Source: a virus (Duplodnaviria; Caudoviricetes). From it: a stretch of DNA of 26,104 nucleotides. Positions 1,011-24,161 of the stretch are shown here, one piece after another (position 1 is the stretch's first letter; every line of letters starts with the position of its first letter). Location: IMG/VR virus record IMGVR_UViG_3300044305_000543, positions 1-26,104 of that record; one strand, given 5' to 3'. The notes under the pieces are model-generated. The model was not told where the DNA came from, did not search any database, and saw nothing but the letters and a program-made list of their open reading frames with translations. Position numbers and translations under genes: made by a program.

Positions 1011-4000
1011 ATGGTAGAAAAAGTAGGCTTAACAACTCCTCAAACAACTTCAGACATAACTACATCTGAAGGTTTAGGTGTAGGAAGTTTTGGTAATCCT
1101 TATTTGCCGCAAGATTCTTCTGGTGCTCTCGAAAAAGATATTGCAAAAACTTCAGCTTTACTTGACATTGTTACAGATACATCACAACTAGAAGAACCTG
1201 AGCAAGTAGACTTAGGCCCACAAGTTTTATTTAGCCCATCAACTAAAAAGATGTTTGTTAATGGTGCTACTTTTGATGTTGACGATTACCAATCAGCGTT
1301 AGACGCAAAACAATTTTTAACACAACCAACGGCTCCAGCCCCTGTAGATGTAGCAGAGGATTGGGTTAGAGTAAGTCCAGATACTTTCACTAAGTATATA
1401 CAAGATATAAAAAATCCTAGCTTAGGCAGACTAGCTTCTAAAAACTTTGATATTGGTGTAGATAATTTAAAATTATTAGCTGGTAGAGGCTTACAATTTT
1501 ATGGCAAAGAAGAAACAGGTAAAGAGTGGGTTGACGAAGCACTAGCAGATTTATACAAAAACCAACCATTCCAAAGAGAATTCCAAAACGAATCAGGTGA
1601 GTTTGTATCTAATGGTTTAGTCGACTGGTTTGTAGCAAACTTAGCACAGCAAGGTCCTATGATATTAGAATCTATTGCTGTAGCTTTAGTCGGTGGTGTT
1701 GCAGGTGGATTAGCTGGTGGAGGTGCAAACCCATTTACAGCCCTCGGTGGTAGTTTATCCGCTTTAATGGGTAAAGAATCATTTAAACAAGGTGTATTGG
1801 CTGCTGCTAAAAAATACAGTAAAGGACAACCAATGACTGTTGGCGAGAAAAAACTTCTTCGTGAAGTATCAGGCATGGCTGGTGCAACAAAAGTTAAGAA
1901 CGATGTTTTTTATAATAACCCGTTTACAGGTGCGAAAAACAGAGCTATTAGAGATGATGCTTTAGAATATACTGGGGCTAAAATAGCAGGAAAAGGTGGT
2001 GCAACTCAAGCTCGTATAGGTGGTGCAGCAGGATTTTCTATACTAGGAGCTCAACAATTAGGTCAAGCTGACATCTATGGAGAAGTTAGAGAGACTGGTG
2101 TTGGTGATAGAGGCACAGCTTTTCTAGGTTCGTTCCCTTATGCTGCGGCTGAAGTTATACCTGAGTTTTTTCTAGCGGGTAAAATACTAGGTTTAAATCC
2201 AGCTAAAATGAGAACAGGTGCTGACGTATTAAAACGTGGGCCTAAAAATATTTTTAGAAGAGCTGCTGAAGGTATTGCAGTTGGTGGTGCATTAGAAGGT
2301 GCTACTGAATTAGCACAAGAAAGTATACTACTAGGTGGTACAGACCAGCTAGGAGATGCTGGTACATATAGAAGATTACTCAATGCGTTTGCAGCAGGTT
2401 TTGCAATCGGTGGTCCTATCGGTGGTATTGCAAATCTTAAAACGGACAAGGTTGCTGATGTATTAAATCCAGAAAGTAACAAAGACCCAGAGCCAGAAAC
2501 TACTTCACAGAAACCACCAGAGCCAGATGAGACTGGGCAACTTCCACTATTTGGGCCTGAAGTAACATCAAGAACTAGAGATACTAGAAGGAATCCAACA
2601 GGTGTTCCACAACCTCAACCTGTAGAAACACCACAACCCACACAATTAGATATTTTTGGTGGTGAAGATGTTATACCTACACAACCAGAAACAGACCCAA
2701 ATCAACTAGAATTAGATTTAACTGGACAACAACCTGCTGCAACAGGGCAACAAAGTTTACTTACACCAACAGGTCGTGCTAGAAACAGAAGAAGGCAACA
2801 AGCTGCAACAGCTGGAGCAACTGGAGCGGCTGCAACAGCTGGGCCATCTGCATCTAACCTTCAAGTTTCTGACCCTATAGGTTCACCTATACCTGCACCT
2901 AATCCAGTTATACAACAAGTTCAACAAAATAGACAACCTCCTGTTCAAACTACTGGTCAAGTTTCTGACCCTATAAGTTCACCTGCATTTGTACCTAATC
3001 CAATTTTGCAAACAGTTCAGCAAACTGACCAGACTAAGCCAGAGGCAGACATAAATAATGAATTATATAAATTAAAAACAGGTAGAACTATAAGTACTTT
3101 TGGCCAACAAGATTTATTAGACCAAAGAGACAGATTAGTACGTAAGAAAAAATTAACCAAAAGAGAAGACAGAGACCTTCAAGCTATTCAAGCTGCTATT
3201 CTTAGACGTGAAGCTGCTATGGCAACAGGTGCTGCAGTAGGTGTTGGGACTGAAAATAGATTACAACAAGTTGTTAATGAACGAAAACAAATAGCTGAAG
3301 ATAATAAGCGAAACGCAGAAATTTTAAAACAGGCTCAAAGAGACGAGGCTAAACGTAGAAAAGCAGAAGAAAAACTAGAAGCTGAAAGAATAAAACAAGC
3401 TGAAGCACAAACTAAAATATTAGAAAATCAAGCTGCTGCAACTGCAGCTGCAACAACAGAAGGAGGTACACAAGATGCCATTCAAGAGCAAGAAACAAAT
3501 GAAGTGGTTGTTCAAGAACAAGCCCGAGATAGCGAAGCAGTTCCAGAAGGAGACCAGCAAACAACAACTGTTGAAGTTACCGAACAAGGTCAAGAAAACC
3601 AAGGACAAGCTCAAACTGGAAGCCCGATTACGGGACAAGAAACGAAAGCTGATAGCCTTAAAAGGGGCAGGGAAAATATCAGCGAACAAGTTCAAGAATC
3701 AACCAATAGGGCGAGGGAAAATCGTGTAGTAACACCTGTTAGACCTAAAGCTACTAGAGACCCAGCTACTATATGGGCGTCTTTAGGTACAGCTTTAACT
3801 TACGATAACTTGTCACCAGAACTTCAAGAACAGTTTCAAAATGACCCATCATTTACAAGAGCTGATGAGCCTAACATAGGTAAATTAAGAAACAAATATA
3901 TGTCGCTTGCACAAGCAGAAGTAGAAGCAAATAGAAATATTGGGTCTAATTCTGAAATACTATTAGATGCACAAGCACAAATAGAAGGGTTACAGGGAGA

Positions 4001-7000
4001 AACTACAGCAGATGTAGATGCACTTACTGATGCTATAGCAGATATGATGGAGATTGCATTTGGAGGTGAAAATCCTAACGCTAATAAATCTCAAGATTTA
4101 TTAAAAGGTAAATCAGAACGTAAATTTGTTAAAGATTTTTTACTTAACACTCAGTTTACTGACCAACAAATAGATATTATAAGGCAGGAATTTATTAGTT
4201 CGATTATTGCACAAGAAAGAAGAAGTATGCAAACAGGCGGTGTTGAATCTGACTGGGTAGTTGTAGCAGAAAAATTAGGAGCAATGGATACAATACTTAA
4301 CACAGATACTTTAAGTGTAAGAAATAAAGTTGCAAGATATCAAGCAGCACAAGAACCAGTTACAGATACTATTGGTGATACTGAGCAGGCAGGTACAGAT
4401 TTAAATGAAGAGAAAGCCACTCAAAAACTAACCGATATGATAGTTGGGTATTTAACAAATAAAAAATATATAACTAACGCTGTACCTGAAGAAATAAAAA
4501 CTCTTTATGCTAGTGCAAACAAAGAAGCGATTGTGCAAGGAGTACCACTAAAAGATTACTTTGATAAAGATGGTAATATAAATCTTGTGCAATCAACAAC
4601 TGAAAGTGGTATGAAAGTTCGTAAACCTGCACCCATAAACAATAAGCAAACAGCTCCTACTGTCAATGACATAGTTAATGAAGCTGATGGCAAAGATGGT
4701 AAGTATTATAGGTACACAGATGGGCAAGAAATAAAAGACCCTGTGCCTAAAGGTAAAGCAGAACTAATAGTTAAACAAGTATTAAGAAAACTTAAAACTA
4801 AACCTACAGTTACTGTAGTTAAAAACAGAGAAGAATTACAAGAAACAAACCCTGCGTTGTATAAAAGAGCAACAGAAGCTAGAGATGATTTTGATACAGT
4901 TAATGCATCAGGTTATTCTTTTGGTGACCAGATAATAATATTTACAGACTTTGTTAAAGATGAACAAATGTTACGAAGTATTATTGGGCACGAAGCACTA
5001 GGACACTTTGGCTTTAGAGCTTTCTTACCAATGAATAGACTCAAGTTAGTATTTGATGACATCTACAATAGTGACCCAGCTATAAGATTAATAGCTGATA
5101 TGAATATAAACAATGGGCAAGAAAAGTATGAGGCTATAGAAGAAGCATTAGCTGACCATGCTGCCTATGTTGATTCACATATACTAGCAAGATTTTGGAA
5201 TGCAATTAAAAACTTTATGCGAGATGCATTTGGCATAGAGTTCCAAGATGATATGACAAGATACTTAATATTCCAAGCTCGCAGGAACTTGCGTACAGGT
5301 GGTAGTGGTGTTGTAACAGTAGGGCAAATGATGGAGAACATGAACAGACTAAGAAACGAAAGTAAGTATGGTCGTTACTTTGTCGAAACACACTCAACTG
5401 TAGCAGCTAAAGGTTTAACAAGTATGGCACAAAGACTTACTAACCAGCCAGGTGAGTTATTTAATTATAAATCATATTATGAGGGAGCTAAAAAAATTGG
5501 TAGGCGTATATACGAGGGTGATGCATCAGGATGGTTTGGTAGAGTACTTGAAGAGTTTCAAACATTAGATAACGTAGCTTTGCGTAGTGAAGGCTTATCA
5601 AAAATCTTTGCGTTGTTTCAAGGACAAACAGCAAGGACAAGAAAGTATCAACAGATATATGGTGATATGACTAAGTTTACTCATAGTGCAAATTACTCTG
5701 GTTTGTTTGGGCAAAACGGACCTACAGCACAAGAGTTAGAAACAGCAGGTAAACTACTAGCATTTGGTGCACTGTTTAAAAGCGGTCAAATTAATAGTGA
5801 CGCTAATATAAGAAACGCTCCATCATTAATAACAAAAGACGGAGAAGGCAATCCAATTATTGACATGGCAGTTTTTGAAAAAATGAAAGCTGATAACATT
5901 ATAAGTAAAGAAACTTTTGAACAAGGTCTTGATGTTCAACTAGATTTTCTAGAAGACGGTACACCTAATCCAGATGGTAGACCTTTTAGATTTGAACCTG
6001 GTGCTATTAGCGATAGAGTTTATAGAATTTACCAAGAAAATAGAAACGCTGTAGATGAAGCTGCTAAAGATTTATTAGAGTCTAACCTAGAAGCTACCTT
6101 ATCAGAAACTACAGATATACTACAAATGGTTAAAGAGTACTCAGAAGACAGTCGTGGCGTAGGAGCTAGTGCTCAAGATGTAGCTGCAGCAAGAATTATT
6201 TTAAATAAATATAAAGAGATTTATTCTGAAGGAGCTACGCTAGAAGGTGTAGGTATTCAGTATAACCCTGAATCTGAAGCCAAAGCAGAAAGATTTTTAA
6301 GGGACGCTAATCGTGCTTTATGGGAACAAAAAAAACTTAACGATTGGGTTAGTGGTAATACCACTGAAGTTCCTATATTAAAAGACGGTAGTGAACAATT
6401 TACTGATGTAGTAAATAGTCTGCAACAACTACATGAAATCTATAATAATAAAAAAGCTGACGCAAAAACAGTAACAGATACAATACAAAACTTATTAATA
6501 CTAGATTTAAAAAATAACAATAATGAATTTAATGCAAAGAGAACTATACTAGGTGGGTATGTACCATTTACTAGGCGTGGTAAATTTCAAGTAACACTTA
6601 GAGCTTTTGATAATGATGGTAATGAAGTAGAACTAGCTGACCATACTAAAAATGTTTTACCATACTATCAAGTCGCTACTCAAGAAGATGCAAGAGCTTT
6701 AGAAAAAGAGTTAACAGAAGACTTTGGCGGTACTAATTATAAATTTATAGATAATAACTTACAAGAAGTAGAAGTTACTTTAGAAGCTAGAACAGCTGCT
6801 GTGTCAAAAAGTGCACCCGTATCTAGTGAGATGAATCTAAATGAATTTACTAGCATCATGGCTAGAATAGGAGTTAATCTAAAACCAGAGCAACAAAAGA
6901 AAATAATTACTGCTTTGACAAAACAAAGCGACAGGGCAAGAAGAAGTCTGCAACGTTCAGGTACAGCTGGTTGGGACGCAGATGTTGTAAGAAGTGTGTC

Positions 7001-8999
7001 AGAACATTTAGAAACTATGTCTCATGCAGCAGGTAAAACTTTCTACTCTCATAAACTAAATAAATATACTACTGATGTAAAACTATGGAGTAAAGGCAAC
7101 AAGAAAAAATTAAATAGACTTAGAGAAAGAATGGAGCAAGTAGAACGAACAGGTAATGATGAGCAGATAAAAATTGCACAACAACAATATGATGCCTATG
7201 CAAACCAGTATAGATATAGTGCAGAAAAAGGTGAGACCATCACGGTATTTAAAGGCAGTGGTAGAGGTAGAGAATCAATGCAGGTTGCCACTGAAGGTGA
7301 AGGTAATAGATATAAAGACATAGCTAGTGGGCTACTAGATTTCTATGGTAAAGCAGGAAACATAGACGTATCTACAGAAGATATGCTTTCAGGTGAAGCA
7401 GGTTCTGCTATAAAATTATTAACAGTAACTACACAACTTGGTGGTTCTCTTGCAACAGGTATTATAAATACCATGTCTATGGTTACTCATAGTATCCCTT
7501 ATTTATCTACGTATAACGCTAAGACGGGTTATGGTGGTGGCTTTGGTATGGGTAGGTCGGCTAGTGCTATGACTATGGCATTAAGAAATATGAAGAACTT
7601 TAATCTAGAGAACTTATCTCATGTGCAAAAAGTAATTGATGATAAAGCATTACAGAATAAATACGGTATAACTCAAGATGAAGCTCAGGTATTACTTGAA
7701 GCTACTGAACAAGGTGTACTTCAAGCGGCACAGTTTAATGCTCTTGTTGGTACAGCTAGAGGTGGATTGATGGCTAAGAAACAATTAGCTGCTGGTGTCA
7801 GAGCATGGATGAAAATATTCTCATACACAGAGCAGTTAAATAGAAGAACAACTTTCTTAGCAGCGTACAGATTACAAAGAGATAAGCTACAAGCTGCTGG
7901 TCAGAGTTTAAAAGAAGCTTCTAAAAGTGCAGAAGAGTTTGCCATAAGAGCTGTTAACACATCTCAAGGTGAATATGGAATGTTTAACAGACCACAAATG
8001 GCTCGTGGTAATGTACTTCAATACATCTTTATGTATAAACAATTTGTAATTATTACTGTAGAACTTATAAAAAACTTAGCTCCAAAAGAAAGATTAATAT
8101 TACTTGGTATGCTTGTATTACTTTCAGGATTAAAAGGCTTACCGTTTGCTGATGATATAACAGATTTAATAGATACATTAGTGCAAAAACTGGGTATTAA
8201 AATGGGAACTGTAGAAAAAGAATTAACAGAACTTATAGAAGAACTTGCACCTGGAGCATCACCAATAGCTATGAGAGGTATAATGGATTACTATCTTGGA
8301 GCTACCATATCTACAAGATTAGGCTTCGGTGATTTGGTACCACTAACAGGGCTCGGTAAGGCAGGCTCAGACAACTGGCAAGAAGTTAAAAACTTTTTTG
8401 GGCCTGTGTATTCTGCAGCAGAACAAACAGTAGTTACAGCAAATTTAGTAGCACGACAAGGTGCGGAAGCTATAGGACTTAAAGATGATACAACAACTTG
8501 GTCTGATATATTTAAGAACCAACCATTCGGTGCATTAAGAGGTGTAACAGATGGTATATCTTATATGGCAAACGGACATATAACAAACAAACAAGGTAAG
8601 ATATTACAAGAAGATGTAAGCGGTTTACAGACTTTCTTTAGATTCTTAAACTTCTACCCAGCAGGAGCTACTTACCAAAATGATATTATAAGAATGAGTA
8701 AACAAACTGATGGTTATGTTAAAGCAATTAAAAAAGGTTATACCGATGCTTGGGTTAAAGCAAAACTAATAGGAGATAGAGATAGAATGAGACAGGTAGA
8801 ACGAGATGTTAGAGAACATAACCAAGACCATAGAGGTACTGAGTTTGAATTAAAACGTTGGTTGCCTTCAGCACAAAGAGCATATAAAGCTTGGTCACTA
8901 CCAGCAGCTCAACGATACAAAAAGTTCGCTCCTAAAAATATCAGACCTGATACACAATTTTTATTAGACGCATACGAAGACGCAATAGATAATCACTAG
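1011..8999 (+). CDS. Giant (2662 aa) internal virion / DNA-ejection-type polyvalent protein with a zincin-like motif and a PLxRFG-like C-terminal region
   Basis: 8-kb ORF with an SD. Features in order: N-terminal Gly/Ala-rich hydrophobic segments; a long Q/P/T/E-rich disordered linker; HEALGHFG...EEALA at about 4989-5150; YVPFTRRG at 6558-6581 (resembles the PLxRFG signature); C-terminal helical region with KGLPF. It is the last gene of the + strand block. Confidence 0.75.
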   Translation: MVEKVGLTTPQTTSDITTSEGLGVGSFGNPYLPQDSSGALEKDIAKTSALLDIVTDTSQLEEPEQVDLGPQVLFSPSTKKMFVNGATFDVDDYQSALDAKQFLTQPTAPAPVDVAEDWVRVSPDTFTKYIQDIKNPSLGRLASKNFDIGVDNLKLLAGRGLQFYGKEETGKEWVDEALADLYKNQPFQREFQNESGEFVSNGLVDWFVANLAQQGPMILESIAVALVGGVAGGLAGGGANPFTALGGSLSALMGKESFKQGVLAAAKKYSKGQPMTVGEKKLLREVSGMAGATKVKNDVFYNNPFTGAKNRAIRDDALEYTGAKIAGKGGATQARIGGAAGFSILGAQQLGQADIYGEVRETGVGDRGTAFLGSFPYAAAEVIPEFFLAGKILGLNPAKMRTGADVLKRGPKNIFRRAAEGIAVGGALEGATELAQESILLGGTDQLGDAGTYRRLLNAFAAGFAIGGPIGGIANLKTDKVADVLNPESNKDPEPETTSQKPPEPDETGQLPLFGPEVTSRTRDTRRNPTGVPQPQPVETPQPTQLDIFGGEDVIPTQPETDPNQLELDLTGQQPAATGQQSLLTPTGRARNRRRQQAATAGATGAAATAGPSASNLQVSDPIGSPIPAPNPVIQQVQQNRQPPVQTTGQVSDPISSPAFVPNPILQTVQQTDQTKPEADINNELYKLKTGRTISTFGQQDLLDQRDRLVRKKKLTKREDRDLQAIQAAILRREAAMATGAAVGVGTENRLQQVVNERKQIAEDNKRNAEILKQAQRDEAKRRKAEEKLEAERIKQAEAQTKILENQAAATAAATTEGGTQDAIQEQETNEVVVQEQARDSEAVPEGDQQTTTVEVTEQGQENQGQAQTGSPITGQETKADSLKRGRENISEQVQESTNRARENRVVTPVRPKATRDPATIWASLGTALTYDNLSPELQEQFQNDPSFTRADEPNIGKLRNKYMSLAQAEVEANRNIGSNSEILLDAQAQIEGLQGETTADVDALTDAIADMMEIAFGGENPNANKSQDLLKGKSERKFVKDFLLNTQFTDQQIDIIRQEFISSIIAQERRSMQTGGVESDWVVVAEKLGAMDTILNTDTLSVRNKVARYQAAQEPVTDTIGDTEQAGTDLNEEKATQKLTDMIVGYLTNKKYITNAVPEEIKTLYASANKEAIVQGVPLKDYFDKDGNINLVQSTTESGMKVRKPAPINNKQTAPTVNDIVNEADGKDGKYYRYTDGQEIKDPVPKGKAELIVKQVLRKLKTKPTVTVVKNREELQETNPALYKRATEARDDFDTVNASGYSFGDQIIIFTDFVKDEQMLRSIIGHEALGHFGFRAFLPMNRLKLVFDDIYNSDPAIRLIADMNINNGQEKYEAIEEALADHAAYVDSHILARFWNAIKNFMRDAFGIEFQDDMTRYLIFQARRNLRTGGSGVVTVGQMMENMNRLRNESKYGRYFVETHSTVAAKGLTSMAQRLTNQPGELFNYKSYYEGAKKIGRRIYEGDASGWFGRVLEEFQTLDNVALRSEGLSKIFALFQGQTARTRKYQQIYGDMTKFTHSANYSGLFGQNGPTAQELETAGKLLAFGALFKSGQINSDANIRNAPSLITKDGEGNPIIDMAVFEKMKADNIISKETFEQGLDVQLDFLEDGTPNPDGRPFRFEPGAISDRVYRIYQENRNAVDEAAKDLLESNLEATLSETTDILQMVKEYSEDSRGVGASAQDVAAARIILNKYKEIYSEGATLEGVGIQYNPESEAKAERFLRDANRALWEQKKLNDWVSGNTTEVPILKDGSEQFTDVVNSLQQLHEIYNNKKADAKTVTDTIQNLLILDLKNNNNEFNAKRTILGGYVPFTRRGKFQVTLRAFDNDGNEVELADHTKNVLPYYQVATQEDARALEKELTEDFGGTNYKFIDNNLQEVEVTLEARTAAVSKSAPVSSEMNLNEFTSIMARIGVNLKPEQQKKIITALTKQSDRARRSLQRSGTAGWDADVVRSVSEHLETMSHAAGKTFYSHKLNKYTTDVKLWSKGNKKKLNRLRERMEQVERTGNDEQIKIAQQQYDAYANQYRYSAEKGETITVFKGSGRGRESMQVATEGEGNRYKDIASGLLDFYGKAGNIDVSTEDMLSGEAGSAIKLLTVTTQLGGSLATGIINTMSMVTHSIPYLSTYNAKTGYGGGFGMGRSASAMTMALRNMKNFNLENLSHVQKVIDDKALQNKYGITQDEAQVLLEATEQGVLQAAQFNALVGTARGGLMAKKQLAAGVRAWMKIFSYTEQLNRRTTFLAAYRLQRDKLQAAGQSLKEASKSAEEFAIRAVNTSQGEYGMFNRPQMARGNVLQYIFMYKQFVIITVELIKNLAPKERLILLGMLVLLSGLKGLPFADDITDLIDTLVQKLGIKMGTVEKELTELIEELAPGASPIAMRGIMDYYLGATISTRLGFGDLVPLTGLGKAGSDNWQEVKNFFGPVYSAAEQTVVTANLVARQGAEAIGLKDDTTTWSDIFKNQPFGALRGVTDGISYMANGHITNKQGKILQEDVSGLQTFFRFLNFYPAGATYQNDIIRMSKQTDGYVKAIKKGYTDAWVKAKLIGDRDRMRQVERDVREHNQDHRGTEFELKRWLPSAQRAYKAWSLPAAQRYKKFAPKNIRPDTQFLLDAYEDAIDNH
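2861..3024 (+). repeat. Imperfect in-frame tandem duplication inside the giant gene (96-nt period)
   Basis: TCAAGTTTCTGACCCTATA[G/A]GTTCACCT begins at both 2861 and 2957. The copies encode QVSDPIGSPIPAPNPVIQQVQQ and QVSDPISSPAFVPNPILQTVQQ. Confidence 0.85.
3461..3467 (+). promoter_or_regulatory. Internal Shine-Dalgarno site for the nested ORF
   Basis: AGGAGGT (full anti-SD complement) lies 7 nt upstream of the out-of-frame ATG at 3475. Confidence 0.65.
3475..3729 (+). CDS. Nested (+1 frame) 84-aa highly basic protein, MPFKSKKQMKWLFKNKPEIAK type
   Basis: It has a perfect SD with good spacing. The N-terminus resembles the MPFKSxxQxxW/YxxxNxPExAxxW pattern I recall from small stand-alone phage ORFs. 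It overlaps a low-complexity part of the host protein. Confidence 0.6.
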   Translation: MPFKSKKQMKWLFKNKPEIAKQFQKETSKQQLLKLPNKVKKTKDKLKLEARLRDKKRKLIALKGAGKISANKFKNQPIGRGKIV

Positions 9000-9016
9000 A
9001 TAATATGTAAAGTTTT

Positions 9017-9043
9017 AGGGGGTACCTAGGGTACAGCCCCCCT
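9017..9043. terminator. GC-rich hairpin between the convergent gene blocks (possible terminator)
   Basis: AGGGG-GTACC-TAG-GGTAC-AGCC-CCCCT forms a bulged stem in the 68-bp gap between convergent stop codons. Neither strand has a clear U-tract. Confidence 0.4.
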
Positions 9044-9067
9044 CTAGAAACAGCCTTCTCGAGCCTC

Positions 9068-11929
9068 TCAGACCCCTTCTTTTTTGTCGAGAACCTGTAA
9101 TTGTCCATATGACAAGTCATCTGCTTCAATATCAGCGTTATCTAATAGACTCTGAAATCTAGGGTGAGTAAGATTAAATCCAATAACATAAGTCTGTGCT
9201 AACTTCACAGGAGTATCTTTACCAAGTGATGCTTTCTCTGACTTAGGAGTAGCGACCACATTCTCAGCAACAAGTTCCTGTTTGAATGTCTTATAGTCTG
9301 CACCACGCATAGATAACCACTTTCTAAAATGAGTTCTATCAATCATCATAGTGCCTTTATCAAACGCATCAGCAGCTGACTTTCTAAATACATCTAGTCT
9401 TATTCTTATATCCCCTCTTGGTATTCTAGCAAAGTCTGGTTGTGCTTTTTGTCCTGTTGTATGCATAATAGTTACTGATGTATCAGCTGAGTCAGCCATA
9501 TATTCTGCAATTAAATCAAACGCATCTACTTGGTTTTCTTGTACAGTTCTACGGATAGCTCCTATCTGTGCAAGTACCCATTCAGTAGACTTCTCATAGT
9601 CATAGTCTATTAACCCCCATTCTTTAGCTAGGCTCATAGATAAGTCAGCAAGGATAATAGCTTGTTCCCAATATCTCTCTTGTCCGCTAAAACTACATCT
9701 ATATTTTTTACTAAAATTATCAGAAGCTTCCGCAATAATAGATTGAATACCTTCTTCGCCCATCTCTACTAGCTTTTTAATAAACTCTCTACCAGCATGA
9801 CCATAATTTTGATGGATAGCTTGGTATATTTTTTTGCCTACCTCACTGTTTCTTGTAAAGACATCAGTCTGTGGGACAGTTAGTTCTAGAAGTCTAGCCA
9901 TCTGTGCGTCTGTGTCTAGGCCAGAGGCAATCAGCTTACTTTGTAGAGACTTGTTGGTGGATACTAGTACAGGTGTAGCCCATGTTTTAGCATCCCGTTC
10001 TTCTGCATTTCTATTAAGTCTTGCTTTATCACGCCCTTGTGACACCCAATAACAAAAGTCTCCTACTTCTTTATCGTTCATCATGGTTACTTCATCTATA
10101 GTAAGTGGTAAGTTAGCGTATGTACCAAGTCGAGAGAACAAAGCCATCTGTGTATACTTAGCCGTAAAGTGTAGCTTCTCAGGGCTTCCATATATAGACT
10201 GAGCCCAATACTGTGCTAGTGTTTTACCACCGCCTGTTGGCCCATATAGTGATACTGTTAATCCTTTGAGCCCTGTAAAATTATAAAGTGGTGCAGAGAA
10301 TGCCACACCTAAACAGAACATATGCGATTTAAGGTTAGCCTTGTCCATAACAGAAGTAAGATTAGTCCATTGTTCTAATGAACCTTTAGCACCATATAAA
10401 TCTGAGCCTTGCTTTTGTATAATAGAAGCTAAGTTTATCTTCTCTTCTATTACAGACCCGTCAGGTTTTCTTTTTATTAATAAATTACCTAGTAAAAAAG
10501 ATGAGTTCTTTTCTTTCCAACCCATAGTAGAATACAAATTTGTCATGGTACGAATCTGTCTTAATTCTTCCATGTAAGTTCTTAACATAAGCTGAAAATA
10601 CTCCGTTTGTTTCTTATTGTACAGCACAATACCTTGGTCTGCTATAGCACTAGGGAATTCCCTACTACCATCAGTAAGATATGCTTGCCTTAATGATAGT
10701 TCTTGCCACCCCATATGTGGTCTATCCCAATGAAATCTTACAGTTTCGTATCCTAATGACTCATCAAATCCGTAGCCTACTGGATATATATCAAACTTAC
10801 ATATGTCTACATCTGTATCATCTATAGTAATTTTAATACCATCTTTAGTTCTTTTAAATGGTTTAGGCATAGGCACAGCGTTAGCTACTTTATCAGGAGC
10901 TTGTTTTATTATAGGAGTTTCTTGATACTGAACACCTAGTCTAGCTGGTGAACCTATCTTACCTTTGTACTTACAACCTCTACAACCTGTAGGTCTATTA
11001 GATTCAAACTTTGCACAGGTAGTTGGGCCTGAAGCAGACTCTTTCCACTGAAGAAGTTTATGTTTAGTTGATTTCTCACTATACCCTGAATGCCCCTTAG
11101 ACCACTCTATAGCCGTTGTTTCGGGGTTTTGGCAGAAAGCTGCTACTCCTATAAGAGAATACCATAAAGGCTCATCTACTTTGTCTTGATGCGATATAGC
11201 CCACTCTATTTGTTTACACTTACTAGCTACTACTGACCCAACAGCAGACTGGTGTTCACTCTTAGTAGATAAATTATCTAACAACGAGTTGTCACGAGTT
11301 TGACCTTCGGATGGATGCGAATCCATAACGTAATAGTAAGATAAACTTGTTTTTAGATGTGCAACACTAGTTGGTTTAGATTCTACTAATACTTTAACTT
11401 TATTACCATTCTTAGGATTATGAGTCCCTACAGGTCTTAGCACCAATGCACTGTTGGCTGTAAGACCAGCGTCTATTTTAAATTCTTTTTGAATTGCAGC
11501 TTGCTTCATAGCTTCTGCTAATGGTTTCCACTGCTCAGGCGGTAGCTCTTCATCAAGTACCCAGTATACATGTAAGCCATTACCTGAATGCACTATCATA
11601 GGTTTAGGTAACTTCAGGTCAGACACAAACTTCCCTAATGCTTTTAAACCTTCCTTCCAAGATTCATATGGTTTATTACCACCACAATCTATATCTATAG
11701 CTACTACTTTAGTAGCTCTTACATTATCTTGTTTCCTGTTTCCTTTCTGCTTGAATGCAGATATTGCAAAATAAGTATTGTTATTAGTTTTATCTAATCG
11801 TTCACATACTTGTGCAAGTTCCTCCCTAGACCTAAAAAACCCCTGTCGTCTACCGTCTTTGTTAATTACAGTAGTAACATAAAATCCCTCGTCTGGTAAA
11901 ACTTGCTGAAAAAATTCCAACATATTCAT
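9068..11929 (-). CDS. Primase-helicase: RepB/AEP-like primase, Cys-rich domain, DUF927 and P-loop helicase
   Basis: Primase motifs VAIDID, VHSGNGLHVYW and LRPVGTHN; Cys cluster C..EPLWY..TTC..GCRGC; DUF927-like TMGW region; Walker A GPTGGGKT and Walker B LTIDE. The start is placed at MNMLEFF (11929) after AAGGT; the track's 11992 start lies inside a hairpin. Confidence 0.85.
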   Translation of the reverse strand: MNMLEFFQQVLPDEGFYVTTVINKDGRRQGFFRSREELAQVCERLDKTNNNTYFAISAFKQKGNRKQDNVRATKVVAIDIDCGGNKPYESWKEGLKALGKFVSDLKLPKPMIVHSGNGLHVYWVLDEELPPEQWKPLAEAMKQAAIQKEFKIDAGLTANSALVLRPVGTHNPKNGNKVKVLVESKPTSVAHLKTSLSYYYVMDSHPSEGQTRDNSLLDNLSTKSEHQSAVGSVVASKCKQIEWAISHQDKVDEPLWYSLIGVAAFCQNPETTAIEWSKGHSGYSEKSTKHKLLQWKESASGPTTCAKFESNRPTGCRGCKYKGKIGSPARLGVQYQETPIIKQAPDKVANAVPMPKPFKRTKDGIKITIDDTDVDICKFDIYPVGYGFDESLGYETVRFHWDRPHMGWQELSLRQAYLTDGSREFPSAIADQGIVLYNKKQTEYFQLMLRTYMEELRQIRTMTNLYSTMGWKEKNSSFLLGNLLIKRKPDGSVIEEKINLASIIQKQGSDLYGAKGSLEQWTNLTSVMDKANLKSHMFCLGVAFSAPLYNFTGLKGLTVSLYGPTGGGKTLAQYWAQSIYGSPEKLHFTAKYTQMALFSRLGTYANLPLTIDEVTMMNDKEVGDFCYWVSQGRDKARLNRNAEERDAKTWATPVLVSTNKSLQSKLIASGLDTDAQMARLLELTVPQTDVFTRNSEVGKKIYQAIHQNYGHAGREFIKKLVEMGEEGIQSIIAEASDNFSKKYRCSFSGQERYWEQAIILADLSMSLAKEWGLIDYDYEKSTEWVLAQIGAIRRTVQENQVDAFDLIAEYMADSADTSVTIMHTTGQKAQPDFARIPRGDIRIRLDVFRKSAADAFDKGTMMIDRTHFRKWLSMRGADYKTFKQELVAENVVATPKSEKASLGKDTPVKLAQTYVIGFNLTHPRFQSLLDNADIEADDLSYGQLQVLDKKEGV

Positions 11930-11950
11930 ATTTGATTTACCTTTATCATG

Positions 11951-11999
11951 GGGGTAGCTGGAAAAACTCAAAACTACAAAATGAAAAACCAACTACCCC
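11951..11999 (-). promoter_or_regulatory. Stem-loop in the primase leader
   Basis: On the minus strand GGGGUAGUUGG pairs with CCAGCUACCCC (11 bp, one G-U) around a 27-nt U-rich loop. Confidence 0.55.
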
Positions 12000-12010
12000 G
12001 TTCTGTTATA

Positions 12011-12292
12011 TTATTCTTTTTCTTTTAAAACCTCAAGAAGCCTTCTGAATCTAAGTTTCTGTTCCATAGCTATAATCTCAGGCATAGGCCACCCGCTTTC
12101 CATAGCAGATAGTAATTTCCTTAAAGTATCTCGTACTCTCTCATCATTTTTTCTACGGACAGGTTTTCCTTTTACCCATCCGTAATAAGTCATACGGGAT
12201 ACCTCTAGAATCTCAGCCATATTACCTGTAGTAAGTAACATGTGTTTCCTTAAAGCTTCTACTCTTTTAAAATCTAGAGGTAACTTTGCCAT
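12011..12292 (-). CDS. Cro/XRE-like helix-turn-helix DNA-binding protein
   Basis: LRKHMLLTTGNMAEILEVSRMTYYGW fits an HTH pattern. GGGGAG SD precedes the ATG at 12292 (MAKLPLDF). Confidence 0.8.
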   Translation of the reverse strand: MAKLPLDFKRVEALRKHMLLTTGNMAEILEVSRMTYYGWVKGKPVRRKNDERVRDTLRKLLSAMESGWPMPEIIAMEQKLRFRRLLEVLKEKE

Positions 12293-12296
12293 TAGT

Positions 12297-13028
12297 TTAC
12301 TCCCCAACAAGCTTAGCTATTTCAGCAGCTAACTCATCATTAGTTGTTGTCGAAGGTACATCTTCAGGCTCTTCAACAGGTACAGGTTTAATTTTAGGTT
12401 TAGCTTTAGGTTTTTCCTTTGCTGCAGGTGCTGCATCTATGTTTACGCTTACATCAACTTGTTCCTGTGTGTTTGGAGATTCTGTTGATTCCGCCTGGTC
12501 AGCACCAGACACAAACCCATCTTCTTCCTCAAAGTCAAAACTGTCAGCTCCGCTACCTGTTCCTTCAACATATTGAATAACTTGCACAGCTTGAAGTCTT
12601 AGAGTTACACCACATCCAATAGCTGGCGAGCTATAAAATGCAAGTAATCCTCCAACTTTAAGTTCTGAGCCACCAAATATATTGTGGTCTATCATAGGTT
12701 GTTTCTTAGAATCAAATACAGCAGGCTTAAACTTAGATTTAAATTTAAATATAATGTTTCCTGTTTCCTCCCCATCTTCATCTACTTCACTACTAAATGG
12801 TAATGGTGCTTGCTTTAAATTTGCTTTAGGTTTTTTATCTTTTTCAGATTTCATACCAGCAACAAGCAACTCTTTAATTAATTTAACTAAAGGTTGAGCC
12901 TCTTCTTGTGGTATAGAAAGGTTTACTTTGTACATAGGCACACTTGCGTAACCTTTCTCAACTGCTTGTGTATCAGGTTTACTGATATACGGATAGTGAG
13001 CAATACCCACTGGTGTTGTAATTTTCAT
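12297..13028 (-). CDS. T7 gp2.5-like single-stranded DNA-binding protein with an extended tail
   Basis: TPVGIAHYPYISKPDT, FKFKSK, IFGGSELKV and GVTLRLQAVQVIQYVEG are followed by the acidic FDFEEEDGF; these are hallmark gp2.5-family motifs. Confidence 0.85.
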   Translation of the reverse strand: MKITTPVGIAHYPYISKPDTQAVEKGYASVPMYKVNLSIPQEEAQPLVKLIKELLVAGMKSEKDKKPKANLKQAPLPFSSEVDEDGEETGNIIFKFKSKFKPAVFDSKKQPMIDHNIFGGSELKVGGLLAFYSSPAIGCGVTLRLQAVQVIQYVEGTGSGADSFDFEEEDGFVSGADQAESTESPNTQEQVDVSVNIDAAPAAKEKPKAKPKIKPVPVEEPEDVPSTTTNDELAAEIAKLVGE

Positions 13029-13696
13029 AAGTCCTCCGACTTGTTATTGATTGAATACCCTACCTCAACAGAAAAATCAAAATCATCTGCGGTAGTTTTT
13101 GGTGTAGATATCTCGCCCGTAACTAACTTCACTTCTTCAGAATCTAATATTGTGTCAACATATTTCTGGATGTTGTCATTATTAAACCCACTAAATTTAA
13201 ATTTTAGTCTTGGGTAACTAACTTCCTCATCAAAACATAATGTTGTCTTACATATCTCAGGGACAATACCTCTCATAGATAATGTTTTATGATATGTATT
13301 TAGATTTTTTAAAGATGAAGGTGTTATATGTAAAAGATGTACACCCTCTTTTGGTTTGTCAGCAAGGATAACTGCTACTCTTTTTATATCAGAGCAATCT
13401 TTAACCTTGTACCCTTGAGGTGTTATTTTAGAACCCCATGCGTTGCGTGGACATAATGCACACACATCATTCTGAGGTGACACACTGGCTTTGCTAGGTG
13501 CCTTACCATCAAGAGAAAAACAATCTGGAGTTGTAGACTCCCTATCGTCTGACCATTCACTTTCGTACCACATCTTAGACACATTCGGATTAGCTCCTAC
13601 GAATACAACATCTAAACTTGTTTCAGATAGTTTGTCGTATGTGCCGTCTTGGATGGTAGCAAAAGTAGAATTCTTTATTGAAAGTTTTTTTCTCAT
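13025..13696 (-). CDS. Conserved phage replication-module protein with four Cys (putative Zn-binding ssDNA-binding/annealing protein)
   Basis: PDCFSLDG...CALCPRNAWGS...KDCS...ITPSSLKN. It is translationally coupled on both sides. The function is inferred from context. Confidence 0.55.
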   Translation of the reverse strand: MRKKLSIKNSTFATIQDGTYDKLSETSLDVVFVGANPNVSKMWYESEWSDDRESTTPDCFSLDGKAPSKASVSPQNDVCALCPRNAWGSKITPQGYKVKDCSDIKRVAVILADKPKEGVHLLHITPSSLKNLNTYHKTLSMRGIVPEICKTTLCFDEEVSYPRLKFKFSGFNNDNIQKYVDTILDSEEVKLVTGEISTPKTTADDFDFSVEVGYSINNKSEDL

Positions 13697-14100
13697 TAAT
13701 CTTCCACTTTGTTTACTGGTTTTCTTACATTGACATCAATACGAGTACCATAGTTAATACCTGATGGTACCGATTTATCAGCCTCTATATAACCACGAAC
13801 TGCTGTCTTACTAACTCTCTTTTCTAGTAAGTCAAAAGCGTCATTATCTTTTATAAACTCAAGCACTGCGTCCCAATCTGCAACTTGTGCAAAATCAGTA
13901 GTAGTTAAAAACGCTGTACCATTGCCTGTCTTAAAAGAATCTACGCCTTGTTCATCTGCTTGTTCTTTGATATATGCCTCTAATTTAGCCATTTGCTCTT
14001 TAATACTTTTAACTTTCTCTTTAGTTTTAGATTCAAGAGTTTCTTTTTCGCCTCTCAATTTAAGGTATGTATCTATAACTTTGTTTATAGGTATGTTCAT
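13696..14100 (-). CDS. Conserved hypothetical phage protein (N-terminal coiled coil)
   Basis: 134 aa with a GAGG SD and an ATGA overlap with the helicase stop. Motif SFKTGNGTAF...VADWD...DLLEKRVSK. Confidence 0.7.
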   Translation of the reverse strand: MNIPINKVIDTYLKLRGEKETLESKTKEKVKSIKEQMAKLEAYIKEQADEQGVDSFKTGNGTAFLTTTDFAQVADWDAVLEFIKDNDAFDLLEKRVSKTAVRGYIEADKSVPSGINYGTRIDVNVRKPVNKVED

Positions 14101-15650
14101 TCTTTCCTCTCTTTTTTAATAAGGTCTAGTAATAGACCCTGTAGTTTCTGTTTACTCCTTAACCGTTCATACATTTTATACTCAAGCTCTGTTGCCTCAA
14201 TATGTATAATGTTTGATACATGTTTCTTACCAATCCTTTCTATTCTTCCATTCGCTTGAATGTATTGCTCATTGCTTGTCACAGGACCATACCATATGAT
14301 AGTACTAGCTCTTGTAAGAGTAAGTCCATGTGCCATGGTAGCTGGGTGGGCAATAAGAACATGAGGATTGTCTGCGTTTTGGAAGTCATGAAATATCTTG
14401 TTTCTTTTTGTAGCTGATACTTCTCCATTAACTACCGCAACACTCCATTGTTTAGAGAGAGCTCTCTCTAACATTCTTAATGTACCTGTTAAAGGTACAA
14501 ATACTATAACTTTACCATCAACTTGTTCTATTGTTTCTTGAACAACGTTAACTCTTGGAGAACAATCAACTTCTATGTGGTCTCCTTCATCTCCGTACAC
14601 CACACCACAACTTATTTGTACAAGTTTTTGTAGTTTAACTGCTTCGTTAACAGCAGTAATTGTTCCTTCTTCTTCTAATTCTGTAGCAAAATGTTTAAGC
14701 ATTTTGTTATAATGTTTAGTTTGGTCTGATGTAAGAGCAACCTTTCGAGTTTGAAACACAGTCTCTGGTAGGTCAAAGCACTCATCTCTTGTATATCTAA
14801 CTGATGGATATAAAACTTGTTTAACTGTATCAATAGATTGAACTCTTGGTACCCATTTCCACTGACTAATTTTAAGCATTACCGATTCTCTAAAAGCTGT
14901 ATATGTTTTAGTATTAAATGGGCTCTCAACAAGTTTAGCTAAAGCCCATGCGTCTGTAGGGTCATTGGGTGTAGGTGTACCTGTCATAAGCCAAAGTCTT
15001 GTATTGGTTTCTCTCTCCATAAACTTACGAATAATTTTAAATCTATTAGTGGACGGGTTTCGCAACACGGCTGCCTCATCTATAATGATAAGGTCAAACA
15101 TGTTTCTACATTCTTGTTCAATTATTTGGAAACCATCGTGGTTAATAATAAAAAAGTCTGCTTGTGTTTTTAATAATTGTTTTCTTCTAGCACTAGTACC
15201 ATGTAAAGTTACTGCTTGTCTATGTGGAAAACTTTTAAATATACTATCACCCCATACTCTCTCTAAAGTTGACAAAGGTGAGATAACTAAAACCTTACGA
15301 ATCTTTCCTATTTCCATGAGGTAGTCGCATGCCCATAAAGCTGATTGAGTTTTACCTGTACCTATTTCATTAAGCACTAAAGCTTTATTATGTATAGTTA
15401 AAAATGCTGATGTCATTTTCTGATGGTGGTATGGAGTAAACTCCCCACTCCAATCGTAATAATAAAGTATTGGACTAGGAGCATTCAAACCAACTTTTTT
15501 CAAAACCTGAACCGATTCTATGGTATGAGGTGTGACAACAAGTTTGTGGTTGTTGTACGTTAATTCACGGGAATCAGGAATAGTCTCTAAAATTTTATTA
15601 GGAAACTTAGGTTTTAATGCTAATGCTTTTGCTTGTTCTACTACTATCAT
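14097..15650 (-). CDS. SNF2-family (SF2) DNA helicase
   Basis: Motif I EIGTGKT, motif II IIIDEA, motif III MTGTP, motif V AHGLTLT and motif VI QANGRIERIG. Confidence 0.92.
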   Translation of the reverse strand: MIVVEQAKALALKPKFPNKILETIPDSRELTYNNHKLVVTPHTIESVQVLKKVGLNAPSPILYYYDWSGEFTPYHHQKMTSAFLTIHNKALVLNEIGTGKTQSALWACDYLMEIGKIRKVLVISPLSTLERVWGDSIFKSFPHRQAVTLHGTSARRKQLLKTQADFFIINHDGFQIIEQECRNMFDLIIIDEAAVLRNPSTNRFKIIRKFMERETNTRLWLMTGTPTPNDPTDAWALAKLVESPFNTKTYTAFRESVMLKISQWKWVPRVQSIDTVKQVLYPSVRYTRDECFDLPETVFQTRKVALTSDQTKHYNKMLKHFATELEEEGTITAVNEAVKLQKLVQISCGVVYGDEGDHIEVDCSPRVNVVQETIEQVDGKVIVFVPLTGTLRMLERALSKQWSVAVVNGEVSATKRNKIFHDFQNADNPHVLIAHPATMAHGLTLTRASTIIWYGPVTSNEQYIQANGRIERIGKKHVSNIIHIEATELEYKMYERLRSKQKLQGLLLDLIKKERKE

Positions 15651-15957
15651 CTATAATCTTCTCTATGTAAGTTTTAACTTGGTTAATAGTTTTGTCATCA
15701 TACACAACAAAACATTTACCTTTAGCCATTTCAATATCTTTCATACACTTAAGTTGTAAGGCGGTGGGTTTCTTAGTCCTGTCCGCCTTACACTCTACTC
15801 CAATAAAGCTACCGCAAACCACAATAACTCTATCAGGTATACCTGACTTACCATATATCCCTGATTGTGGCGAATAAAACCACACTCCAGAGTTTTTCAA
15901 GGACTTTAACATGGTGTCAAGTTTATTTTTAATTTTTCCCTCTGGTGTATTAGCCAT
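15607..15957 (-). CDS. VRR-NUC domain nuclease (Holliday-junction resolvase-like)
   Basis: TPEGKIK...GKSGIPD...FIGVECKA...PTALQ pattern. The likely start is MANTPEG at 15957. Confidence 0.85.
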   Translation of the reverse strand: MANTPEGKIKNKLDTMLKSLKNSGVWFYSPQSGIYGKSGIPDRVIVVCGSFIGVECKADRTKKPTALQLKCMKDIEMAKGKCFVVYDDKTINQVKTYIEKIIDDSSRTSKSISIKT

Positions 15958-15983
15958 ATTATAGATATTTACAGTGTTGTCAA
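15956..15983 (-). promoter_or_regulatory. Sigma70-like promoter elements with non-canonical geometry
   Basis: The minus strand has TTGACA (15983-15978) and TATAAT (15963-15958), spaced 14 nt. An alternative -10, TAATAT, is spaced 16 nt. Confidence 0.35.
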
Positions 15984-15986
15984 GTA

Positions 15987-16649
15987 TTAAATTCGTGCAT
16001 ATTCGCAAATATTATTGGCTGGGCAATACCTACATAAACCGCTTGGTCTTGCTGGGAAGTTATTAGATGTATAGGCTTGGTCAATCTTATCTATTTTTGA
16101 TAAAACATTAGTCCACATTATATTAGTATCAACATGATTAAAGTTCTCGGTATCTATCTTGCCCTCCTTTAACCATACGAAACTAGACTTTACATGTTTT
16201 ATAGTTGGATAGTGTTTAAATGTTTGTAGAGCAAACAGTTCTAACTGAAAAAAATCTGGTCTTCTTTTACCTGTTTTCCAATCCATTATAATAGCTGTGT
16301 CATCTTTGAGGATAAGAACATCTAAGATACTGCGTAACCATGCGTCATTGTCATACCAACCTGTTGGTGTAAGGTTTTCATTGAGGCATAGCTGTTGTTC
16401 TAAATACAAGTCAGCATTTTCTGTAAGTTTTTCAATAGTGTTACAAACTTGTTCGTGCTTAATTGATTCTTTAGGTAATGGCTCGGAGAGAGCCAAGCGA
16501 TTTTCTAGTTGCTTGTGTACTCTCTCTCCATATATAGTAGCCTCGCTCCCCATATCTTTTACATCTTTGTTAATTCTCTGATGTAGATACCTTTTAGGGC
16601 ATTGTTCAAACATCTTAATAGATGAGTAGCTATGTGTAAGTTTTTCCAT
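15987..16649 (-). CDS. PD-(D/E)XK exonuclease, Cas4/RecB-like with a Cys staple
   Basis: HSYSSIKMFEQCP...G..VH..LE, E..L, ILDV, DWKTGK, QLELFA and a C-terminal CRYCPANNIC. Confidence 0.88.
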   Translation of the reverse strand: MEKLTHSYSSIKMFEQCPKRYLHQRINKDVKDMGSEATIYGERVHKQLENRLALSEPLPKESIKHEQVCNTIEKLTENADLYLEQQLCLNENLTPTGWYDNDAWLRSILDVLILKDDTAIIMDWKTGKRRPDFFQLELFALQTFKHYPTIKHVKSSFVWLKEGKIDTENFNHVDTNIMWTNVLSKIDKIDQAYTSNNFPARPSGLCRYCPANNICEYARI

Positions 16650-16861
16650 TACTTTGGTTGTTGATTCATTCTATTAATTATATCATGTTTTAATAAGTCA
16701 ATCCTACCTAGCTCACTCATAGTGTCATCTATCTGTGTTGAATGCCTAATATATGAATTCCCTACTCTTAGCAAAACAAAAACATGTGTTACCTCATCAT
16801 TATCTTCTGCTACTTTTTTTGTTTCATCTAATATTTTTATTACATTTTCTTTTGTTGTCAT
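16649..16861 (-). CDS. Hypothetical protein (~70 aa)
   Basis: GGAG SD and an ATGA overlap with the polymerase stop; its own stop overlaps the next start by one base. Confidence 0.7.
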   Translation of the reverse strand: MTTKENVIKILDETKKVAEDNDEVTHVFVLLRVGNSYIRHSTQIDDTMSELGRIDLLKHDIINRMNQQPK

Positions 16862-18721: not shown

Positions 18722-18955
18722 CTACCCCTGTTCTGCTTTCTTAATTAGTATATCTAAATATTGCCTAGCTTTTTTCAAGTCCTCTATCTGCCCTTGTTTC
18801 GTTGGGTGTTTGTGTTGCCACCTACAGACATACTTGATTACATTTGATTCACAATAAGGTATTTCATTCTCAACAATAAATGTTATTGGCTCAATCTTAT
18901 ACCTTGTGTAGTGTTCTGGTTTCTCTACCTTGTCATTACTTCTTACTATTGTCAT
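18722..18955 (-). CDS. DUF3310 protein (T7 gp1.7 nucleotide-kinase-like)
   Basis: VEKPEHYT..IEPI.FI...NVIKYVCRW..K....EDLKKARQYL signature. Confidence 0.85.
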   Translation of the reverse strand: MTIVRSNDKVEKPEHYTRYKIEPITFIVENEIPYCESNVIKYVCRWQHKHPTKQGQIEDLKKARQYLDILIKKAEQG

Positions 18956-19122
18956 ATATTTTCCTCCTCATATGGTTTAAAATAAAATATAATATTGCCC
19001 TCTAATGTTGCAACATCATCTGATACTCCAAAGTGTTCCTCCTCGTTGTACCATGCCCAATTAGTATGACCATACTTCCTCCTACAATAATCATCTATTA
19101 CTTCTGTTATATCACTCATCAT
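18952..19122 (-). CDS. Small hypothetical protein, YGHTNWA paralogue B
   Basis: The real start is at the AAGGAG-linked ATGATG (19122/19119), not 19302. MSDITEVIDDYCRRKYGHTNWAW...IIFYFKPYEEE is clearly similar to 19630-19818. Confidence 0.75.
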   Translation of the reverse strand: MMSDITEVIDDYCRRKYGHTNWAWYNEEEHFGVSDDVATLEGNIIFYFKPYEEENI

Positions 19123-19414
19123 CTTTCTCCTTATTAGTTGATGGATAAAACCATAATCTGTACTTGCCATCTTCTGCATATCCATGCTCGTACCATGAAC
19201 GGTCATCAACCCATTTTTGTCTCGTTTTAATACCCCACCTTTTACAAAAGCTAATAATGTTAGTTGCCTGTCTGCGATTACATACAATGCTGTCTCCGTC
19301 ATCTAACTCAGTAATCCATTTATACTTATGAATATATCTCGCTGTAGCACTCCCTTTCGTTTTCTTAGATGTAAAAGGTATGTTCTTTTCAATTTTAAAC
19401 TCACTCATCATCAT
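19112..19414 (-). CDS. Small phage protein, possible DNA-binding (FKIEKNIP...KY...GDS type)
   Basis: GGAGG SD; the start may be 19411 or 19408. It carries a motif I recognise as common in small phage early proteins. Confidence 0.7.
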   Translation of the reverse strand: MMMSEFKIEKNIPFTSKKTKGSATARYIHKYKWITELDDGDSIVCNRRQATNIISFCKRWGIKTRQKWVDDRSWYEHGYAEDGKYRLWFYPSTNKEKDDE

Positions 19415-19640
19415 CTTCCTCCTTTAATTGTAATTCACAATAACATTTACTGTCTGTAATCCAAACAAACGAACACTCCTCTCCTTCATCAACTTGTTCA
19501 TAATGACTACAAGATTCTGATTCTTTAAAGTCTTGTTCATACGGACACCTCTTTAGTTTATTAACACAAGGATTTTCAATGGTTTTTTCCCATGCATTAA
19601 AATCTTCTTTATTGTTAAGGTTTAAAAACTTACTCATCAT
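19401..19640 (-). CDS. Small Cys-rich acidic hypothetical protein
   Basis: 79 aa with 6 Cys, bounded by two junction repeats. Confidence 0.7.
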   Translation of the reverse strand: MMSKFLNLNNKEDFNAWEKTIENPCVNKLKRCPYEQDFKESESCSHYEQVDEGEECSFVWITDSKCYCELQLKEEDDDE

Positions 19641-22134: not shown

Positions 22135-22156
22135 AATTTTACTCCTTTGGTTATAG

Positions 22157-24143: not shown

Positions 24144-24161
24144 AATATTTTCCTCTCTAGT

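Follow-up and report, generated by a model that had tools for sequence, protein, structure and literature searches.

A probable exchangeable slot for small basic genes, nested in the +1 frame of a giant ejection-type protein gene of aquatic podoviruses

The 26,104-nucleotide (nt) fragment of the caudoviricete virus record IMGVR_UViG_3300044305_000543 analysed here (48% complete), hereafter called the window, carries on its plus strand a giant gene of the virion or ejection type (1011..8999, 2662 amino acids (aa), from the list of open reading frames (ORFs) and its translation), inside which a second and much smaller gene is read in the +1 frame (3475..3729, stop included). This nested gene would encode a protein of 84 aa with a net charge of about +23. 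With a probability of roughly 0.95, it is a separately translated small gene lodged in an exchangeable slot, within a disordered linker of the giant ejection-type protein gene. Seawater metagenomes contain DNA near-identical to the window.

The Shine-Dalgarno (SD) sequence of the nested gene, AGGAGGT (3461..3467, plus strand), is separated from the ATG at 3475 by a 7-nt spacer, and its AGGAGG is the single occurrence of this hexamer on the plus strand of the whole window. An initial annotation of the sequence had described this arrangement, with an out-of-frame ATG opening an 84-codon Lys/Arg-rich ORF, and the coordinates confirm it. The nested product contains 28 Lys/Arg and 5 Asp/Glu residues, whereas the host-frame reading of the same bases (codons 822-907 of the giant gene, 3474..3731, plus strand) contains 8 and 18, respectively. 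By its composition this host segment is an acidic linker, as had been stated, and is polar with few order-promoting residues. The claim that its codons are unusual for the gene is borne out in part only: AGC represents 4/5 of the Ser codons in the overlap against 7/125 elsewhere in the gene, GCC 2/6 of the Ala codons against 8/257, and the GC content at third codon positions is 0.27 in the overlap and 0.18 elsewhere. The longest stop-free +1 run in the host gene extends over 101 codons, the runner-up over 52. When the overlap was recoded synonymously, its +1 frame stayed open in 446 of 100,000 trials; recoding of the whole gene, however, gave a +1 run of at least 84 codons somewhere in 218 of 2000 trials, and for this reason the open +1 frame alone is suggestive only. 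The comparative evidence is decisive: the nested gene is considered real because of the selection acting on the +1 frame, the homology to stand-alone genes and the conservation of the SD, the first two of which rule out a chance ORF. A minus-strand ORF of 91 aa (3420-3695) overlaps the same region. Another +1 ORF, of 36 codons with AGGAG directly at its ATG, is found at 2356-2466 of the window (plus strand) and recurs at loci L001, L195 and L197; it is probably a by-product, because the host sequence is conserved there and its AGGAG lies too close to the start to serve as an SD.

Selection on the two readings was compared in eight pairs of relatives. The ratio of nonsynonymous to synonymous differences (pN/pS) amounts to 0.17-0.38 in the nested +1 frame, compared with 1.6-4.2 in the host frame over the same bases; outside the overlap, the host gene gives 0.30-0.47. 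In close pairs, the nested frame remains at 0.17-0.19. Both halves of the nested protein are selected, since its C-terminal extension alone yields nested-frame values of 0.17-0.40 in three pairs. The overlap is also the most inverted 85-codon interval of the host gene, with a value of -0.17 for the differences at position 3 minus those at position 1, the lowest of 376 outside intervals being -0.026. A T that makes a host-frame stop is found at none of 428 synonymous sites in 51 distinct nested copies (0/23 in the window's own copy) against 168 of 395 in 39 stand-alone copies, and T without stop consequence is also rarer in nested copies (68/566 against 157/417). According to these comparisons, purifying selection is exerted on the nested frame but not on its host-frame counterpart, which is kept open across the overlap and otherwise loosely constrained. 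Contigs aligned over 3200-4100 hold few variants and were not used as evidence.

The nested gene is widely retained in relatives of the giant gene. Five metagenome loci were obtained in a search made with host sequence only; four keep the SD, the ATG and a frame of 84-85 codons, and the fifth is unrelated. All five near-complete genomes chosen by their capsid protein possess one copy each, nested in a giant 37-46% identical to that of the window. Among 80 loci found by the N-terminus of the giant, which include near-duplicates and do not represent as many independent events, a clear copy is present in 43 (34 with ATG, 9 with GTG). An SD motif precedes 40 of these 43 copies, compared with 80 of the 7024 other +1-frame ATG or GTG codons of the same host genes, and in the window's clade (quick tree, support 99) the 27 distinct rows all carry the nested gene. 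The persistence of the SD, start and open +1 frame in homologous giants, which the initial annotation had proposed as a check, supports its view of a true nested gene, together with the +1 selection and the stand-alone homology. Could the +1 frame be instead a fossil, a once separate gene absorbed by read-through and untranslated now, the host frame alone being of importance? Decayed remnants are indeed known in another host class (10/80), but the current purifying selection even in close pairs, the SD and start kept by 40/43 copies and the single nested copy per genome make this explanation extremely improbable. No read-through intermediate of the type gene A, small gene, gene B was found among these relatives; the split giants of L394 (two ORFs, 8770-10836 and 11296-17931), L396 and L426 lack that layout and may be assembly frameshifts. 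In L394 and L396, the second ORF of the split giant contains a family member with an N-terminal extension.

The small gene belongs to a large family. Its first 40 aa (3475..3594, plus strand) constitute, according to profile and AlphaFold2 analyses, a domain of the MPFKS type resembling phrog_1375, with helices at residues 6-15, 17-26 and 29-33. The remaining residues (aa 41-84, 3595..3726, plus strand) form a basic extension that is under selection, is predicted to contain a long helix (43-74) and is confined to the window's own clade. A profile built from 39 stand-alone copies only matches the window ORF with an E-value of 3.4e-17, and the homologues for which the initial annotation had advised a search do therefore exist as stand-alone genes. 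The phrog_1375 model itself gives 0.089 for the window protein and up to 0.1 for 13 of 16 aligned relatives, the best value being 7.6e-7. The initial annotation had assigned the MPFKS N-terminus to a widespread family of very small phage ORFs that stand alone, and rightly: the family profile recovers 4201 clusters at 50% identity. Within its top 150 matches, the domain stands at the protein start in 129 and 57 are fusions of at least 130 aa, some of them to InPase or DUF5661. The invariant residues M1, P2/F3, S5, Q8, P17, A20 and P36 are common to the stand-alone members, and the median net charge of the family is +11 to +12. The C-terminal half was also considered as a second free-standing family and rejected, its seven loci all belonging to the window's clade. 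For DUF3008 (PF11450), an Atlas lead only (0.84, 0.81), none of 81 members matched at E-values up to 0.1, and an MPFKS match in a phage paper (PMC12919940) proved to be an unrelated sequence. Neither the family nor such nesting is described in the literature searched, which covered few subscription journals.

The layouts of this family are diverse. By rule, 110 motif-found loci divide into 57 nested, 46 stand-alone, 6 tail-overlapping and 1 fused, with L081 (a fusion) and L069 (a truncated scaffold) misclassed and L066/L067 (terminase frame) and L105 doubtful though nested by rule; 52 further loci comprise 23 nested, 26 stand-alone, 1 tail-overlapping and 2 fused. Nesting is nearly always in the +1 frame, another frame being possible in 2 of 109 cases. 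With the overlap masked, the hosts form separate clusters, namely the window-type giants, a second giant group, a gene of 390-420 aa flanked by those for the portal and the head protein, and a small number of singletons; as judged from these sequences, the nested family occurs in unrelated host genes. The small gene is regarded as the older partner because it forms a large family that is found stand-alone, fused and nested in unrelated hosts. The comparison thus identifies the nested frame as the older gene and the acidic host linker as the new reading. This reverses the genealogy contained in the initial term of an overprinted gene: the conserved frame with thousands of homologues is the nested one, and the linker is the novelty. 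The initial annotation had also proposed the basic product as a possible chaperone for the acidic segment that overlaps it; such a dedicated chaperone or partner would be expressed in a coupled manner, like Rz/Rz1. The charges are complementary (about +23 for the product, -10 for the host segment) and nesting recurs in giant virion genes. However, the 46 stand-alone loci among the 110 have no such segment, the -1 frame of stand-alone copies being closed by a mean of 4.3 stops per 40 codons; the host segment changes freely, with a pN/pS above 1, is replaced along with the cassette, and owes its acidity to the genetic code. A chaperone role is consequently quite improbable.

Of 80 scaffold-type hosts, found by their C-terminus, 50 have an intact nested gene, 10 a decayed one and 20 none, and a quick tree shows at least seven changes of state. 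Decayed copies are located in the first 100 codons of such hosts at L131, L133, L134, L142, L154 and L155, where the start was lost, stops were gained and the shifted sequence was retained as host linker. A copy elsewhere was found in 0/5 scaffold-type genomes without the nested gene, a weak test given that the same model missed 2/5 positive controls. Many copies of the scaffold-type and second giant groups have an A-rich leader and no SD. In Bacteroidota, an A-rich leader without SD is expected. A cultured carrier exists as well: Flavobacterium phage elemoA_7-9A has a copy of 42 codons, located at codon 1221 of the giant structural gene gp21 (L200:6001-6129; NC_055852.1, 54224 onward), and 68 elemo records give the same weak match. 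This copy is unannotated, in line with the initial prediction that such genes are missed. Stand-alone members are likewise unannotated in phage C75C1, Prochlorococcus phage P-RSP2 and Gordonia phage Troje (L113, L115, L202:852-992). At L035, L048, L074, L106, L209 and L015, the small gene overlaps the tail of an ORF of 120-150 aa, whose last 25-45 codons extend into the small gene, the relative frame being the same; these loci are possible intermediates of nesting. The giant-type protein P0151 (949 aa) contains two host-frame motifs, which suggests either two nested copies or a copy and a remnant.

Most giants that seemingly lack the MPFKS gene were found to contain a different +1 gene at the same place. 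This second occupant encodes a basic protein of 57-63 aa beginning with MPLKKG, which matches phrog_2423 in 5/5 cases and, weakly, DUF6496 (PF20106) in 2/5 (17.6 and 15.4 bits, for a gathering cut-off of 24). It fills the +1 slot at L414:12564-12737 and L413:12381-12557, and also at L390, L392, L395, L399, L404, L406, L410, L411, L418, L422 and L425; phrog_2423-type genes are nested in other giants too (L440, L449, L455, L479, L489, L504). In the 80 loci found by the giant's N-terminus, 50 contain the first family (seven of these copies being divergent and found only by a clade-built profile, four of them without canonical start), 18 the second, 5 neither and none both, while 7 are too short. 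In relatives, the slot is thus occupied by one family or the other, and in no case by the two together. Its limits are revealed by natural pairs. L423 and L414 have flanks that are 94.1% identical ahead of the slot and 93.6% identical behind it, and they share the SD, the start context and the bases after the stop, and yet the nested gene differs from start codon to stop codon. The same start-to-stop replacement is observed between L412 and L413 (88% and 92% identical flanks). The first family was found in 0/5 genomes with the second (96-100% complete), and the second in 0/4 genomes with the first, the control being detected. The second family is under comparable selection (pN/pS of 0.15-0.40 in the +1 frame against 1.4-3.9 in the host frame) and, among 80 loci of its own, 68 have it as a stand-alone gene, 9 as a nested one and 3 as a fusion. 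Homology between the two families is not detectable with hhalign (probability 4.9%, E-value 0.008), a very remote kinship being still possible. The occupancy is scattered over the tree of the sister clade, and repeated exchange is therefore indicated. In the initial annotation, the giant gene had either absorbed a formerly separate gene or harboured a true nested one; a working nested gene is retained from this proposal, but the either/or is not, relatives swapping the gene whole for another family.

Same-strand genes wholly contained in another one in the +1 frame are already known, as with lambda Rz1 in Rz. Embedded, overlapped and separated layouts are reported in the spanin survey, with stop-loss extension as a proposed route (PMC6139136); the survey found no family combining embedded members with overlapped or separated ones, and neither the +1 nor the -1 frame was favoured. 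The two spanin proteins associate in a complex and remain together as a pair, whereas the MPFKS gene is embedded, tail-overlapping, separate or fused, in unrelated hosts, nearly always in +1, and exchangeable. In contrast to an Rz1-type o-spanin, the 84-aa product has no Cys and no hydrophobic signal and is no lipoprotein, and its host reaches 2662 aa. Gene E in D of phiX174 offers another internal +1 overlap with one disordered product; in classical overprinting, the de novo frame usually lacks remote homologues (PMC8227390), whereas here the nested frame is widespread and the host segment is novel. The ORgenes of E. coli likewise contain a segment from another gene's alternative frame, and out-of-frame fusion and transfer are proposed for them in PMC8788219; here, however, the donor gene is intact, selected inside its host and swapped as a unit. 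The nesting is accordingly closer to out-of-frame remodelling than to classical overprinting, with a donor that is still alive. phrog_1375, phrog_2423 and DUF6496 are families of annotated genes for which the literature searched gives neither a function nor any nesting, and the window's copy adds a clade-specific extension of 44 aa. What is new is the exchangeable slot; that literature, with its few subscription journals, contains neither the swap nor an account of the second family.

The host gene was characterized by blastp against six relatives. A conserved N-terminal part (about aa 1-500) is followed by a variable linker (about aa 500-1160) and then by a C-terminal part that is again conserved; within the linker, similarity to three of the six relatives begins at residue 822, the first overlap codon. 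The C-terminus matches phrog_11358, phrog_21376 and phrog_10089 (DarB-like) and is about 26% identical to F116-like giant proteins, the closest cultured matches being 25-27% identical. In the complete relative G001, the orthologue closes the structural module, after the major head protein, the tail genes, a phrog_511 gene and two genes of 450-500 aa. In T7-like podoviruses, the large ejection protein occupies such a place, after the head and tail genes. By similarity and position, the host gene is assigned to the podovirus ejection-type giants of the late structural module. It resembles the polyvalent and other giant ejection proteins (PMC5512222; F116-like) by its place in a late module and its DarB-like/F116-like C-terminus; a Pfam scan of the host protein, however, detected no Pfam family and no polyvalent domain, and the word overlap is absent from the main text of PMC5512222. 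A Pfam Uds1 match below the cut-off (E-value 4e-4) was treated as a match of helix or composition.

A simple mechanism could account for this architecture. On the late structural mRNA, ribosomes initiating at the internal SD would produce the 84-aa protein, while those coming from 1011 would read the same bases as a spacer. Lys and Arg codons read one base earlier would become Glu, Gln and Lys codons and, with T avoided at wobble positions, the basic gene would turn into an acidic, polar linker; nesting would be tolerated for this very reason. Recombination between start and stop would exchange whole small genes. As for the product, it would be a late head-assembly protein in which the three-helix module and the basic tail bind DNA, packaged in the head for charge neutralisation or core organisation. 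That it is a late DNA-binding head protein, the two families being interchangeable in this role, is the least certain part of the proposal and is given slightly better than even odds. It is favoured because a generic polyanion as target would agree with the charge of the protein, with its gene position, with its spread over unrelated capsids and with the fact that an unrelated basic protein takes its place. The product is likened to the internal proteins of T4 by analogy only.

Several observations bear on this role. AlphaFold2 predicts three short helices (predicted local distance difference test 94-97) followed by a long basic helix, and the domain superposes on a 44-aa stand-alone phage protein, A0A6J5L1Y8, with 0.7 A over 43 columns (probability 1.00, E-value 0.005, both being predictions). 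With VIA-align, the best Z of 4.8 comes from rows covering the long helix 40-82 only, so that the three-helix module was barely tested and novelty of the fold is not implied. In many of the 28 stand-alone loci examined, with 114 of 129 neighbour ORFs scanned, the copy has terminase, portal or head genes in its vicinity, and one nested class sits inside the gene between the portal and a head-type protein. Such positions would also suit a capsid-assembly accessory binding the inner face of the major capsid protein, the portal or the scaffold, in the manner described for gp4 of mycobacteriophage Patience (PMC11965321), and the invariant residues suggest a specific surface. This alternative is nevertheless unlikely: the same family is conserved amid unrelated capsid types and hosts (podoviruses, siphoviruses, jumbo-type proteins), the family profiles gave no match with Patience gp4, and the protein is replaced by a family without detectable homology. 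In fusions, KxA or ES occurs within 14 residues after the domain in 38/54 cases against 140/841 in the background; these patterns are assumed here to be prohead-protease sites.

Patience gp10 is a distant member of the family (E-value 3e-6 among 14 sequences, 0.006 genome-wide). It is expressed, is listed as a virion protein among very basic neighbours and adjoins the portal gene (PMC4324244). It resembles the nested product in this membership and differs in being stand-alone, with one particle spectrum. At L518:6881-7944, Patience gp111, gp10, gp11 and gp12 constitute an extremely Arg/Lys-rich cluster of small proteins after the portal gene, three of them with clear or listed particle association.

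Other points weigh against a packaged head protein. That single particle spectrum of gp10 compares, according to PMC4324244, with 5 spectra from infected cells at 30 min and 2 at 2.5 h, and its neighbours gp11 and gp111 have 36 particle spectra each. In 201phi2-1, the weak match gp383 has no virion mass-spectrometry note, whereas its neighbour gp382 has one. The fold search returned no match in the PDB at an E-value of 0.001 and the PDB sequence search was also empty, so that no function can be drawn from solved structures. The KxA/ES patterns were chosen after the sequences had been seen, their identity as protease sites being assumed; the small gene is dispensable in some scaffold-type lineages; the loci of relatives are partly near-duplicates, as mentioned; and the two families may exclude each other because they share a site and not because they share a function. 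The product could act instead inside the cell, having been injected together with the DNA or synthesised in the course of infection; there it would coat phage DNA or bind a conserved host machine such as the ribosome, RNA polymerase or nucleoid. The infected-cell spectra of gp10 agree with this, as do the patchy loss and allele-like swapping, which resemble those of accessory or conflict genes, and the fusions to InPase, a domain of injected polyvalent proteins (PMC5512222). Such an action is unlikely, however: the genes are positioned in late structural modules, their conservation in phages of distant host phyla argues against a single host-protein target, and no enzyme fold is present. A DNA-binding head protein remains the preferred candidate, and the core protein acting on DNA that the initial annotation had proposed is a plausible role.

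Two further features of the window concern its minus strand. At 21406-25202, the genes for Nmad5, a DUF2201 vWA/metallopeptidase and a MoxR-type ATPase adjoin one another, a row presumably representing a known kind of phage module. At 18952-19818, there is a series of small ORFs, 62-116 aa in length, whose SD-bearing ends resemble one another (EEEDDE/EEENI), and the resemblance of ORF 19630-19818 to the C-terminal half of 18952-19302 suggests a tandem duplication.

A typical nested gene is an isolated case, of recent origin and linked to a single host gene. The family described here is old and large, is nested in unrelated hosts and is swapped with another family at one site, which provides a testable route to gene overlap other than overprinting. 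It is implied that many abundant aquatic phages carry an unannotated gene, and that some conserved-looking linker motifs, of the DAIQEQ type, are by-products of another frame. With the natural swap pairs, and with Flavobacterium phage elemoA_7-9A as a carrier in culture, the function of both large families can be tested directly. In its broadest form, a proposal put forward tentatively and at a little under even odds, the giant ejection-protein genes of aquatic podoviruses would contain a dual-coding slot, a linker open to small basic genes of different families, each replaced as a unit between its start and stop codons and read without exception in +1, since the genetic code would convert a Lys/Arg-rich gene into a harmless acidic spacer; the occupants would be interchangeable protamine-like head proteins, widespread and unannotated aids to DNA packaging, and many of the acidic linkers of giant virion and scaffold proteins would be their shadows.

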